From assembly GCA_963769885.1 (NCBI GenBank), contig CAVYNH010000007.1:448001-512000 (forward strand): a stretch of 64,000 nt of DNA, read 5' to 3'. The DNA is from Methanobacteriota archaeon. Lineage in GTDB: Archaea > Thermoplasmatota > E2 > DHVEG-1. The notes beneath the pieces were generated by a model. It ran no database searches and was not told the origin of the DNA. It saw only the letters and a program-made list of their open reading frames with translations. Both the position numbers and the translations under genes were made by a program. Positions 60,750-64,000 of the stretch are shown piece after piece (the first letter of the stretch is position 1; each line of letters starts with the position of its first letter).

Positions 60750-60877
60750 GCAGGGGTAGCCAAGCCTGGCCAACGGCGCAGGACTTAAGATCACAAGGGC
60801 TGAAACACAGCGGAAGGTTCGTTGGATGAGACATCCTGTCTCGCAGGAGTCCGAGGGTTCAAATCCCTTCCCCTGCA
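60750..60877 (+). tRNA. tRNA-Leu(TAA) with 43-nt intron (60790-60832) at position 37/38
   Basis: Acceptor GCAGGGG/CCCCTGC and anticodon TAA at 60786-60788. BHB motif: CTTA/TGAG helix with AGA and ACA bulges. Long variable arm. Confidence 0.95.
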
Positions 60878-60943
60878 CTCTTTCTTCCACAAGATAATTA
60901 TTAATACATGAAACAAGATTTATTGTTAGAGGGAGGAAGTAAA

Positions 60944-61813
60944 GTGCAGGAAAAACACAAAATCTTTGCAATACTTGCTACAACACTACTTCTCACAGTA
61001 TCGTGTTTGCCAACAATCTCTATGGCAACCCAAAACCACTCATCGGTCCAAGTGACCACTGAGGTATACGGTTTACAAAATGATAAACCGAAGACCGTCT
61101 CACTCACCGACGAACAATACCAGCAGTTCGAAGAGTACTGCACCAGCTTCCATACAAGACTCACACAGGCAACAACCCAAAAGGAAGTCACGCTCCTCTT
61201 CAAAGAAGCGGTCGGCGTCCTCCATAGCTACGACCTCCTCCCCGCAGGTATGACCCTCCCTCAGGCACAACGCATGGTTGAACGCCTTGCGCAAATCTCA
61301 CAACGACTAAACACTCGAGCAAACACCTACTACTCACAGACCGGCAACCACATCTGCCTCATTGCGGGGCACACCACGCAAACATGGTTTACCTCACCCC
61401 TTTATGCCTCCCTGTTAGTCCTCTTGTGGCTCATCCAAAAACACGACACTCTCGTCTTCCTCCTCTTTACCGCTATGATGATGGATGACCTCGTCGATCA
61501 ATTCATTCCCCTAGCTCCTTTCGATGCTATTAGTTTCGGTGAAGCATGGATGGATGGTTGGGAAGGACAATGGCACGACGCCTATTCCGAAGGCTGGGTC
61601 CATACCTTCGGATTTGGCGGCGCTCACGACTGGAACGGAACATTCAAAGGAGCGCTCACAATCGACATCCCCGGAGGCAGCCACCTCTACTCTGATCTCT
61701 ACCCAGGAGCCACCGGTTTTATCGGTATTAAAACCGAATCCCTGTACCGATCCTCCTTTTACCTCGGTCTTGCTCTCAACGTCCAACTTAACAATGTCAA
61801 TACTACACGCTGA
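60944..61813 (+). CDS. Secreted hypothetical protein (cassette 1 cargo)
   Basis: GGAGG precedes a GTG at 60944 (the ORF extends to 60908). Signal peptide and C-terminal GF.GI...FYLG.AL.V. Confidence 0.75.
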   Translation: MQEKHKIFAILATTLLLTVSCLPTISMATQNHSSVQVTTEVYGLQNDKPKTVSLTDEQYQQFEEYCTSFHTRLTQATTQKEVTLLFKEAVGVLHSYDLLPAGMTLPQAQRMVERLAQISQRLNTRANTYYSQTGNHICLIAGHTTQTWFTSPLYASLLVLLWLIQKHDTLVFLLFTAMMMDDLVDQFIPLAPFDAISFGEAWMDGWEGQWHDAYSEGWVHTFGFGGAHDWNGTFKGALTIDIPGGSHLYSDLYPGATGFIGIKTESLYRSSFYLGLALNVQLNNVNTTR

Positions 61814-61862
61814 AATCACAAAAAAAAACATGGCCTGTATTATTAACCTTACTTAGTTGATT

Positions 61863-61918
61863 GTCAATATTTGACGTACCGGTAAACTGGGGTTCAAATC
61901 CCTTCCCCTGCACTCTTT
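61863..61918 (+). repeat. att-like repeat 1: shared arm plus tRNA-Leu 3' end
   Basis: 61890-61918 is identical (29/29) to 60855-60883. Confidence 0.95.
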
Positions 61919-61981
61919 TTTACCTGAAAAAGGTTTAAATAACCAAGGGTAATCTATTTGCATATAGAGGGCGGGAAAGCA

Positions 61982-63127
61982 ATGATTGGAAATCCTATTG
62001 TTAGGAAACATTTGGCGGTTGGAATCATTCTCTTGTTTGTTGGGGCTTGTGTCGTTCCAGTGATTGCACAAGATCCTGAAAAACCACTACCGACATCAAG
62101 AGGCGATTGGGTATATGTTGGTGGGAGTGGACCTGGGAACTACTCAAAGATTCAGGATGCGATCAATAATTCTTCAAGTGGAGGCACCATTTACGTCTTT
62201 CATGGTACCTATCATGAGGCAATCACGATCACTGTTTGGAATCTGACGATAATCGGAGAAGGTAGAGACGTTACAATCATTGATGAGAACTGGACCGATG
62301 CCGCGGTGGTGATCGAAAAAAGTTGCGTGAGCCTCCGTGGGTTCACCATCACAGGGAAGAAGGACGGTATTTATGTTCATGGGGAATTAACCACCATAAC
62401 GGTTTCTGACAATAATTTTACACAAAATTACTGTGGCGTTGAGTTTCAATACGATTGGGATAACTATGATAATGTCATAGAGAACAATATTTTTTATTCA
62501 AATCACTGTGGGATTTATTTCGTAAGCGATCTCTGGTTCAATACCATTAGAAACAACTCATTCATCAATAATTTTGATGGTATGGAAATCAGTGGAAACA
62601 ATATCAGAGTACTGAATAACACATTTCTGAATTGTCAGGGGAGTGGCATTTCCCTTTATGGCGGACCATCGATGGTTGAAGGTAATATTTTTACTAAAAA
62701 TAACATGGGAGTATCTGGTGGTGGTCTGGAACAAACAATTTCTGGAAATCTATTTATTGAAAATGATATCGGTCTGAATCTTGGTGGCTCAGGACATACT
62801 ATCACTGGAAATGTCTTTGAGAATAATTCACTTGGCGTGAGAGTATCTGGTTCCAATACAAAGGTGAATCAAAACAATTTCATACAGAACGGCAAACACG
62901 CACAGTTTGCTGAAGAAAACCGATCGAATGGGAATAACTGGGACAACAATTATTGGAGCGATTCATTCCACTTTTTTGGTTACAAGTGCATTTTTGGGAA
63001 GATGCACACAAAAATACCAAGGCTTTTACAATTTGATCCATTCAGTACTACCTATTTTTGGATTGGATGGATCAACTTCGACAGGCATCCCGCACAAGAA
63101 CCCTATAGTATTCCAGAAATGAATTGA
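61982..63127 (+). CDS. Secreted NosD/CASH right-handed beta-helix protein (cassette 2 cargo)
   Basis: YVGGSGPGNYSKIQDAI, GTYHE, Asn-rich PbH1 repeats, NYWSD and FDRHPAQEPY. Confidence 0.85.
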   Translation: MIGNPIVRKHLAVGIILLFVGACVVPVIAQDPEKPLPTSRGDWVYVGGSGPGNYSKIQDAINNSSSGGTIYVFHGTYHEAITITVWNLTIIGEGRDVTIIDENWTDAAVVIEKSCVSLRGFTITGKKDGIYVHGELTTITVSDNNFTQNYCGVEFQYDWDNYDNVIENNIFYSNHCGIYFVSDLWFNTIRNNSFINNFDGMEISGNNIRVLNNTFLNCQGSGISLYGGPSMVEGNIFTKNNMGVSGGGLEQTISGNLFIENDIGLNLGGSGHTITGNVFENNSLGVRVSGSNTKVNQNNFIQNGKHAQFAEENRSNGNNWDNNYWSDSFHFFGYKCIFGKMHTKIPRLLQFDPFSTTYFWIGWINFDRHPAQEPYSIPEMN

Positions 63128-63140
63128 TTGATACTCATCC

Positions 63141-63190
63141 GTCAATCATCGTCGTGCCGTTAAACCAGGGTTCAAATCCCTTCCCTCTCA
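63141..63190 (+). repeat. att-like repeat 2
   Basis: GGGTTCAAATCCCTTCCC (18 nt identical to the tRNA), then diverged; the shared arm lies upstream. Confidence 0.9.
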
Positions 63191-63317
63191 TTTTTTTCCT
63201 GCGATGCATCCTGAGAACAGAAAACTTTAAATATGAAATGTTATATATACATAACATATTGTTATAGATAAATAATAAAATGTTATCACCAACACACATT
63301 GAAAAGAGGTGAAATGC

Positions 63318-63722
63318 ATGAAAGAAAAATTAGAAATGATCACGGGGCTGATAATAGTAATTGTCGTGTTCCTGACACTTCTCATCTATGCCATGAACAT
63401 CGGAATATTAGATATGGAAAAATTTGGATTATTTGTCATCGCCATTCTGCTAGTGTCGGCAGTCCTCTACATCCTCTGGGATCGAGCAAAAAACGTAAGA
63501 AAAGGACTGCCAGCGAAGGACGAACGGCTAATAAATATCACCTACAAGGCTGGACATAACGGATTTATCGCAGCAACACTCAGCAGCGTTTTCGCCCCAG
63601 TGCTCTCAAGCATTCTCCTCAATCGAGAACTCGAGGGCCACCATGTGACCAGCATCGTGGTTCTTGTTTCAGGCTTTGTCTTCATTGTATCATATTTGCT
63701 TCTGGCGAGGAGAGGGAAGTAG
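63318..63722 (+). CDS. DUF2178-like membrane protein (cassette 3 cargo)
   Basis: Four TM segments with a DER...I..KA motif, paired with an XRE HTH gene. Confidence 0.7.
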   Translation: MKEKLEMITGLIIVIVVFLTLLIYAMNIGILDMEKFGLFVIAILLVSAVLYILWDRAKNVRKGLPAKDERLINITYKAGHNGFIAATLSSVFAPVLSSILLNRELEGHHVTSIVVLVSGFVFIVSYLLLARRGK

Positions 63723-63725
63723 CCT

Positions 63726-63923
63726 ATGAAAACACGCATCAAGGAACTCCGGGCGCGATACGATCTCACCCAAGAGGACCTTGCGAAGAAAGTAGGAGTC
63801 CGACGAGAAACAATCCTCTTCATAGAGAAGGGAAACTACAATCCCTCACTCCAACTAGCCCACGATATCGCACAAGCCTTGCAGACAACCATCGATGACT
63901 TGTTTCTATTTGACGATAAATAA
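63726..63923 (+). CDS. XRE/Cro-family HTH transcriptional regulator
   Basis: [29 protein letters not shown]. Confidence 0.92.
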
Positions 63924-63936
63924 GAGAAGCGCCATC

Positions 63937-63986
63937 GTCACCTCTTGTCATGCTGAAAATCTGGGGGTCAAATCCTTTTCCTTGAG
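63937..63986 (+). repeat. att-like repeat 3 (most degenerate)
   Basis: GGGGTCAAATCCTTTTCCTTG aligns ungapped to the tRNA T-arm/acceptor, with the shared arm upstream. Confidence 0.75.
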
Positions 63987-64000
63987 CTTATCTATTTTTT

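Follow-up and report, generated by a model that had tools for sequence, protein, structure and literature searches.

Three miniature integrase-less cassettes behind an archaeal tRNA-Leu gene, probably a tandem accretion array served in trans by a proviral integrase

The window analyzed here is a stretch of 64,000 nucleotides (contig C7:448001-512000) from a 2.09-Mb archaeal genome, assembled in 7 contigs and 92% complete, and the subject of this work is the array of three small gene cassettes at its right-hand end, directly downstream of a tRNA-Leu(UAA) gene. This gene, which carries a 43-nt intron, lies at 60750-60878 on the plus strand and is intact at the head of the array according to ARAGORN (intron mode) and Rfam (score 39.8 bits, gathering threshold 29). 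Its 3' terminal 23 nt (60855-60877, plus strand), GGGTTCAAATCCCTTCCCCTGCA, are called the core below and are taken as the attachment site (attB/attL) by which the gene anchors the array. A preliminary description of the window had reported that this tail recurs at 61890, 63168 and 63964, and same-strand copies were indeed confirmed at 61890-61912 (0 mismatches, 23/23, the match extending through CTCTTT to 29/29), 63168-63190 (3 mismatches, 20/23, the leading 18 nt exact) and 63964-63986 (6 mismatches, 17/23). Core matches with at most 3 mismatches numbered 3 in the window, against 0.00 expected from 100 shuffles.

The copies divide the downstream DNA into units of 1035, 1278 and 796 bp, with a GC content of 0.37-0.47 compared with 0.55 for the genome; the earlier estimate of about 1.0, 1.3 and 0.8 kb, with unrelated genes in each unit, agrees with these measurements and with the Pfam contents. 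Cassette 1 (60879-61912, plus strand, 1035 bp) has a T-rich left end and an open reading frame (ORF) at 60908-61813 on the plus strand for a protein of 301 aa with a hydrophobic N-terminus and no Pfam family. It closes with an arm of type C, described below (TGTCAAT at 61863-61869 and the palindrome TACCGGTAAA at 61877-61886), and with the perfect core copy. Cassette 2 (61913-63190, plus strand, 1278 bp) starts with a T-tract and a TATA-like box, TTTAAATA, at 61933-61940, encodes a NosD/right-handed beta-helix protein of 381 aa (61982-63127, plus strand) and ends in a second type C arm (GTCAATCAT at 63141-63149, GCCGTTAAA at 63156-63164) and the 20/23 core copy. Cassette 3 (63191-63986, plus strand, 796 bp) also starts with a T-tract and TTTAAATA, at 63226-63233, and carries a gene pair, a DUF2178/DUF6773-like membrane protein (63309-63722, plus strand) and an HTH_3 regulator (63726-63923, plus strand), before a degenerate arm and the decayed 17/23 core. 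A T-tract follows each core and the two TTTAAATA boxes stand 20-35 nt past the cores, ahead of the genes of cassettes 2 and 3, as had been noticed before. The four cassette genes all have the orientation of tRNA-Leu.

Outside the cassettes, a tRNA-Gly(UCC) gene (60669-60745, plus strand; ARAGORN and Rfam RF00005, 62 bits) lies 4 nt 5' of tRNA-Leu and is its conserved partner; the genes upstream of the array encode an aminotransferase and a Na+/H+ exchanger. The distal flank starts at 63987-64000 (plus strand) and is followed, beyond the window, by an ORF of 239 aa (C7:512061-512780) with no closing repeat, and then by a convergent CDF transporter gene and uvrB. The array ends there, about 0.8 kb past the window edge, and the suggestion that it might go on was not upheld. 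The 239-aa gene has a native-like GC content and is missing at the syntenic place in a genome of the same genus (G001); it could be an old fourth cassette. The GC content of the cassettes (60879-63986) is well below that of the host and near that of low-GC members of the same family such as G098 (0.29-0.37), which hints at the direction of transfer.

The arrangement is repeated elsewhere in the genome. An identical 23-nt tail was found in tRNA-Leu(CAA), (GAG), (CAG) and (UAA), that is, in four of the five tRNA-Leu genes, and each of these four is followed by 1-3 extra co-oriented core copies, spaced 0.9-1.4 kb apart and bounding low-GC DNA. Unrelated genes make up the cargo of the other arrays, among them those for a nitroreductase, a PAS protein, an ICMT-like methyltransferase and an M14 carboxypeptidase, and some of this cargo is antisense to the tRNA. 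Extra downstream copies of the last 15 nt were most frequent for tRNA-Leu (10 in the genome) and were also counted for Pro(CGG) (two), Glu (five to six), Ser(GCU), Met, Val(GAC), Arg(GCG) (two), His and Lys. Hence, tRNA-anchored insertions are a general feature of this genome.

The core copies outside tRNA genes are preceded by an arm that is absent from the tRNA. The element common to the arms is the palindrome TTACCGGTAA, which ends 5-6 nt before the core, and 8 of the approximately 11 non-tRNA cores of the genome, found by the core alone, carry ACCGGTAA-like arms upstream. Across the sites collected from relatives and metagenomes, the arms form three conserved non-coding families of 45-90 nt. 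Sites 2 and 3 of the window, the two well-preserved ones, belong to type C, in which TGTCAAT stands upstream of the palindrome. At the other end, many cassettes share a conserved T-tract and a motif, ACAAAGATTTAAATA, that reads as a putative promoter with a TFB-recognition element (BRE) and a TATA box. Outside these sites, TTACCGGTAA formed no informative cluster in the genome. The possibility that the TAA of the palindrome supplies the stop codon of the cargo gene was rejected, the stops lying mostly about 70 nt upstream.

Arms of types A and B (for example at L012:3436-3525, and at many metagenome loci) measure 75-90 nt and are conserved across unrelated cassettes. They contain the motif (A)CAGGAG(TA), which resembles the 5' acceptor strand of tRNA-Leu, GCAGGGGTA, and can pair with CCCCTG of the core; either a remnant of a complete tRNA copy or a structural mimic could account for it. 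In one genus (G008), the arm CCGGTAAAACCG is joined in five copies to a different core, AGTTCAAATCTC, so that more than one tRNA-like core can accompany the arm. Some cassettes (L205:2240-2962 and L174:6964-7686) end in a longer, decayed piece of tRNA-Leu, from the D-loop region to the 3' end, instead of a palindrome arm, which suggests the occasional transfer of array segments together with tRNA sequence.

The distribution of these sites was then followed beyond the genome. Of 107 other genomes of the same family, 53 had sites with palindrome and core; of 10 genomes from sister families, none had. A reversed-pattern control gave 0 everywhere in this genome set. The arm-plus-core pattern was found in 49 stretches of GTDB species representatives, all of them metagenome-assembled genomes (MAGs) of the Thermoplasmata/Thermoplasmatota type, and in at least 120 metagenome contigs; in IMG/VR, no contig matched arm plus core and one matched the core alone. 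Cassettes were collected from the relatives' loci and from the metagenome contigs among the matches listed, with sites spaced up to 4 kb, and this yielded at least 306 distinct non-tRNA sites and at least 184 cassettes bounded on both sides. Their length ranges from 154 to 3276 bp with a median of 932 bp (n = 184). Of 179 cassettes with an ORF, 137 hold a single one of at least 60 aa; the longest ORF is in sense orientation in 116 and antisense in 63, so that the co-orientation pointed out in the preliminary description holds for the window (4/4 genes) but not in general. The cargo is diverse, with 83 Pfam families among 150 proteins, the commonest being NosD/beta-helix proteins (20/150). No tyrosine recombinase or fragment of one was detected in the 184 cassettes with 16 recombinase queries (E ≤ 0.01).

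Evidence of mobility was obtained from cassettes that are 97-99% identical over their full length and sit between unrelated flanks, the homology beginning directly after the left core and stopping at the right core. In one such pair of twins, c109 follows another cassette in its contig and c148 directly follows tRNA-Leu(UAA) in another. The nitroreductase cassette that lies behind tRNA-Leu(CAA) in this genome (C4:198743-200050) has a 93% identical copy in G001, located within the array that precedes the CDF and uvrB genes, that is, at the locus of the window itself. The flanking CDF and uvrB genes are only 83% identical between the two genomes, and none of the three cassettes of the window occupies the corresponding place in G001. 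Furthermore, in wetland metagenome contigs that are about 96% identical in the flank, core 3 is joined directly to core 4, with the joint inside the cores; therefore, cassette 3 is missing or replaced in that strain. In a genome of another genus (G018), a cassette-3-like unit is followed by a decayed site and then by a cassette-2-like gene, an order opposite to that of the window. A comparison with public runs used assembled contigs; the best share was 0.31, and cassette 1 had no coverage in the four runs compared, from which nothing follows. Cassette order and presence thus vary between G001, the 96% strain and G018, and no fixed order was found. This turnover among close relatives, with exchange at the cores, agrees with the original proposal of discrete non-autonomous cassettes that recombine at the tRNA-Leu core.

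The same proposal described the array as polarized, with the newest cassette first. In the window, core decay does rise with distance from the tRNA (0, 3 and 6 mismatches), but this gradient is not general: among 18 tRNA-anchored arrays with at least two sites, the last site was the more decayed in 8, the first in 6, and both were equal in 4. Insertion next to the tRNA is a possible reading of the window.

No recombinase was found in cis. The genome has eight matches to PF00589, none in any unit or beside the array, which corroborates the earlier statement that the units lack an integrase. Four of the eight genes adjoin tRNA-His, tRNA-Gly, tRNA-Arg and tRNA-Pro and belong to other elements. 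Neither the array nor the regions upstream of the tRNAs contained an integrase, the sole serine recombinase lies at a distance (C7:35961), and searches of the genome for an SSV-type integrase (PF16795) and for Cas1 (PF01867) gave no match. Since no recombinase is encoded in the cassettes, one must act in trans.

Resident Xer-like genes were considered for this role and rejected. Two full-length paralogues (C6:676482-677501 and C4:123883-124914, 86% identical) and a fragment (C4:108815-109237) are well below the XerA equivalog cut-off. Against the integron integrase family in NCBIfam, whose cut-off is 265 bits, the best of them score 69 bits, and none of the eight PF00589 matches is clearly a canonical XerA. 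The family is missing (E ≤ 1e-10) from several site-bearing genomes, neither palindrome nor core occurs near these genes, and a 12-mer repeat search around them returned nothing outstanding. What is left is a weak lead: Xer-like relatives adjoin a tRNA-Gly/tRNA-Leu pair in G008 and in contig L108, and one lies 1.5 kb from a site in L153. In the first two (L040:7330-8325 of G008, and L108:2143-3042) the gene stands beside tRNA-Gly/tRNA-Leu(UAA), on the side away from the cassettes, a position that recalls the intI-attI layout, and there is no close relationship between the two proteins.

A screen of the ORFs in site-bearing loci returned only a handful of recombinases, one of which points to a candidate helper. 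The integrase of locus L114, encoded at the left end of an insert of 8.7 kb beginning at a core copy, has a normal Phage_integrase domain and SAM-like N-terminal domains. Its family, with proteins of about 314 aa and an upstream partner gene for a protein of 181 aa (orf181), was found in 19 of the 107 genomes of the archaeal family and in none from the sister families. Six of the nine closest homologues share one layout: a tRNA-Leu core (of various isoacceptors), 5-8 nt, a TACCGGTAAAA-like palindrome, a TATA box, orf181 and the integrase gene. A complete element of 9.4 kb (L243), with an MCM helicase and a serine resolvase, ends in a type C arm plus core, and a second integrase element, with a cassette of 1.16 kb directly behind it, has a type A arm plus core at its end. 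The integrase/MCM elements of the relatives thus carry the same 22-23-nt core, the same palindrome TTACCGGTAA and arms of types A and C. Additionally, 26 viral contigs of IMG/VR carry this integrase family, and in the four closest the order of tRNA (Ser, His or Leu), TTACYRGTAA palindrome, TATA box and integrase was found again. Since the same layout occurs at tRNA-Ser, tRNA-His and tRNA-Leu, the palindrome is tied to the integrase family rather than to the tRNA. The partner protein, Orf181, has an N-terminal R-x-I-Y-V-Y-L-P motif followed by helices, and its C-terminal part looks like a winged helix. Its predicted structure reached a mean pLDDT of 72, gave no PDB match at E ≤ 0.001, and had winged-helix domains as weak matches; with a moderate model and no significant match, a role as the DNA-binding partner that recognizes the palindrome is an inference from these features. 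Judged by its sequence context, this provirus integrase of about 314 aa, together with orf181, is the best candidate for the cassette enzyme.

Taken together, the three units are probably miniature integrative cassettes without an integrase that have accreted in tandem at the 3' end of tRNA-Leu(UAA), and their enzyme would be a proviral integrase supplied in trans. The most economical reading is that the cassettes share their att specificity with MCM-encoding proviruses or integrative elements. Each cassette consists of a T-tract that would replace the terminator of the tRNA, usually a BRE/TATA-like promoter, one gene or gene pair, and an arm. The arm ends in TTACCGGTAA and, 5-6 nt later, is followed by the 23-nt copy of the T-arm and acceptor 3' strand of tRNA-Leu. 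From this architecture we infer a recombination reaction in which a circular cassette would recombine, through its attP-like site, with an identical core, which any one of the four tRNA-Leu genes or the site of a resident cassette could provide. A tyrosine integrase, possibly the one named above, would catalyze the crossover in trans, possibly with the help of a protein bound to the palindrome. Such an integration would regenerate the tRNA and push the previous core downstream, and in this way arrays would grow and be shuffled.

Several observations weigh against this interpretation. The candidate integrase and orf181 were not found in the assembly of this genome (92% complete) or in its congener, and the cassettes therefore exist here without the presumed helper on assembled sequence. 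For the earlier proposal of a recombinase supplied in trans, this means that the lack of an enzyme in the cassettes and a plausible helper family speak for it, but that the helper was not located in the genome concerned. Among the 107 family genomes, sites are hardly commoner with the integrase (11/19) than without it (42/88); this absence of a clear association would fit a helper that comes and goes, and it is also the main weakness of the assignment. The palindrome stands upstream of the core in the cassettes and on both sides in the integrase elements, so that the grammar of the site may be read in more than one way. A circular cassette, a recombination product or an empty site was not observed directly, and no terminal overlap was seen among the contigs fetched by the site pattern.

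Two kinds of site do not conform either. A second type, composed of GAGATTTRAACTYGAG and GTTGGTATCMCTTCCCCTGCA (C4:198747-198787, C4:114721-114761 and, in G001, L030:1715-1755), shares just the last 11 nt or so with tRNA-Leu and yet bounds a moved cassette, which makes the position of the crossover uncertain. An inverted partial arm, ACCGGTATTTCGGAGTTCAAATCA, lies at C4:198677, about 70 nt from one of these sites. In addition, an array of three sites at C6:290456-292370 (locus L012:2957-4871) has no tRNA at its head. It holds two cassettes of 548 and 1345 bp with a GC content of 0.24-0.33, and the arm of its first site, TTTTTACGTCCAGG, is degenerate, differs from the others and was met again in other genomes. 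The M14 carboxypeptidase cassette of this array is 83% identical to the one behind tRNA-Leu(CAG) (C7:164949-166342).

Other explanations were weighed against these data. Each unit could be what is left of a large integrase-bearing element that was deleted down after integration at the tRNA, the classical origin of cis-mobilizable elements (CIMEs). In relatives, large integrase/MCM elements are indeed integrated at this core, with arms of these families at their ends, the distal sites of the window are decayed, and archaea and bacteria commonly have tandem remnants at tRNA genes according to the sections of PMC8371274 and PMC5704250 that deal with them. Remnants would hardly be expected, however, to show the tight, small sizes and the mostly single intact genes of the 184 cassettes, or to be free of any recombinase fragment. 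Nor would they recur as complete, near-identical cassettes between unrelated neighbours, and the cargo consists of accessory genes (NosD-like proteins, peptidases, reductases) and not of element backbone genes. The diverse cargo and the absence of backbone and integrase remnants speak against an origin by decay, which is unlikely; an old origin of this kind is conceivable.

Alternatively, no dedicated recombinase may be involved, and cassettes could be exchanged after DNA uptake by homologous or microhomology recombination between the 23-nt cores and the conserved flanks (T-tract, promoter and arm). The failure to find such a recombinase in this genome or near most arrays and the lack of a genome-level association between sites and integrase would be explained in this way, and cassette ends do share some homology, up to 90 nt of arm plus core and T-tract. 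Nevertheless, the spacing between palindrome and core is constant in three arm families that are unrelated in other respects, which argues for recognition by a protein, and an integrase family that targets several different tRNAs has the same palindrome in its att region. The exchange boundaries coincide with the core, and insertion at a single 23-nt core would need a circular donor and very short homology. Exchange of this kind is accordingly improbable.

It is very unlikely that the tail copies are functional RNA signals, such as tRNA-like 3' ends or mRNA terminators, whose position behind tRNA-Leu is incidental. The T-tract after each core is typical of archaeal termination, and in the alignment consensus the CAGGAG of type A and B arms pairs with the core CCCCTG beside the T-arm hairpin in an acceptor/T-arm-like fold. 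This consensus, however, comprises only the T-arm stem and a weak acceptor-like pairing, single-strand folds were no more stable than those of shuffles, and Rfam made no call on the core copies. A gene is antisense to the site in 63 of the 179 ORF-bearing cassettes, and arrays start exactly at tRNA-Leu genes, while cassettes are swapped exactly at the cores.

Thermoplasmatota and Methanosarcina have casposons that insert at the 3' ends of tRNA genes, with a duplication of about 14-15 bp. One paper on Methanosarcina casposons (PMC10359463) reportedly mentions tRNA-Leu. That the units are non-autonomous, transposon-like elements, comparable to mini-casposons or miniature inverted-repeat transposable elements, with the repeated tRNA end as target-site duplication, is nevertheless extremely unlikely: their own ends scored a mean of 6.76 for terminal inverted repeats against 6.9 in the control, none lying beyond it, no Cas1 was found in the genome, and the repeat measures 23 nt plus a T-tract, with a long asymmetric arm on one side. 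A true integron, or a cluster of attC sites lacking integron integrases (CALIN), with cassettes that depend on IntI, is almost certainly the wrong description, for although the row of small gene cassettes looks alike and the parts of PMC9668308 that concern archaeal MAGs report both, membership is refuted by the absence of an integron integrase (the Xer-like genes lie elsewhere, far below the NCBIfam integron-integrase and XerA cut-offs), by sites without attC-type hairpin potential (z-scores of -0.78 to +1.35 against shuffles for seven single-stranded arm-plus-core sites from five stretches, two of them on both strands), by the cassettes' own TATA-like boxes and by a tRNA gene as anchor.

Returning to the reading of integrase-less cassettes at the tRNA-Leu core, a wider proposal, which falls a little short of probable, is that the family possesses a Thermoplasmatota analogue of integrons of independent origin. 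It would have four tRNA-Leu platforms and a common pool of hundreds of promoter-bearing one-gene cassettes, rich in secreted beta-helix proteins, that are tagged by the TTACCGGTAA arm and a tRNA tail, and it would be served in trans by a provirus integrase and its 181-aa partner. If this is true, viruses are the engine of host gene-cassette exchange, and the capture and shuffling of single-gene cassettes is not unique to integrons and can be built from a tRNA 3' end and a phage-type integrase, the commonest parts of prokaryotic mobile DNA. It would also explain the fast turnover of accessory genes, mostly for surface and secreted proteins, in an abundant archaeal lineage of sediments and wetlands, and would link this turnover to proviruses that are gained and lost. 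A short att site (palindrome, spacer and 23-nt core) and a concrete pair of integrase and partner emerge from the work, and both could serve as genetic tools for archaea that have none. No account of single-gene cassette populations at archaeal tRNA genes was met in a full-text search or in the consulted sections of a review of archaeal tyrosine recombinases and of the archaeal integron paper.

Regarding known systems, the likeness to integrons and CALINs, which Ghaly et al. (2022; PMC9668308) report from archaeal MAGs in the sections considered here, is one of operation. In both cases, small and mostly one-gene cassettes, each closed by a recombination site, are stacked in rows at a fixed chromosomal site and are shared and shuffled among genomes, and many arrays have no integrase nearby, so that the enzyme necessarily acts in trans (PMC9668308, same sections). 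The preliminary description went further and called the system integron-like with a tRNA as its attI site; the operational resemblance stands, whereas the anchor is a tRNA gene end and not attI, the sites are a tRNA-derived 23-nt core and a palindrome arm that do not fold like attC, and there is no IntI. The present cassettes carry putative TATA-like boxes and about a third are antisense, in contrast to integron cassettes, which are mostly promoterless, co-oriented and expressed from the platform, and four tRNA-Leu genes per genome act as parallel platforms.

Gene capture by SSV-type (Sulfolobus spindle-shaped virus) integrases is another point of reference. She et al. in 2001 reportedly described 'gene capture in archaeal chromosomes' by such integrases, in which capture is said to follow the splitting of the integrase gene on integration. 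In that system, as here, foreign genes are fixed beside tRNA genes by integrase-mediated insertion, but no split integrase is involved in the present arrays, as there is no PF16795 match in the genome and no integrase fragment in the cassettes.

Archaeal elements that target tRNA genes resemble the array more closely in structure: a direct repeat of the 3' part of the tRNA bounds the insert and the tRNA is regenerated, as the relevant parts of PMC8371274, PMC6563490 and the Islander paper (PMC4383910) describe, and tandem integration at one tRNA is known in archaea from the same portion of PMC8371274. The candidate helper would be an ordinary member of this group, with its integrase gene next to att and an MCM helicase. 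The cassettes differ from it in their size of about 1 kb and in having neither integrase, nor replication gene, nor structural gene.

CIMEs in tandem accretion are likewise att-flanked elements without recombination genes, lined up one behind another where a target gene ends (3'), and a resident att site can receive a new element that brings a matching integrase (PMC5704250). Composite arrays of a helper and integrase-less units also occur here, in L114 and in G098, and the att specificity is held in common with autonomous integrase/MCM elements of relatives. CIMEs are described as decayed integrative and conjugative elements (ICEs) or integrative and mobilizable elements (IMEs), whereas the units found here form a large and diverse population of single-gene cassettes that are intact, have conserved arms and hold no remnants of a backbone, in archaeal hosts and with an MCM-encoding provirus-like element as the candidate helper. 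As far as the portions of these papers that treat such elements go, the closest described relatives of the cassettes behind tRNA-Leu are, in bacteria, CIMEs and tandem accretion (PMC5704250) and, in archaea, elements integrated in tandem at tRNA genes (PMC8371274).

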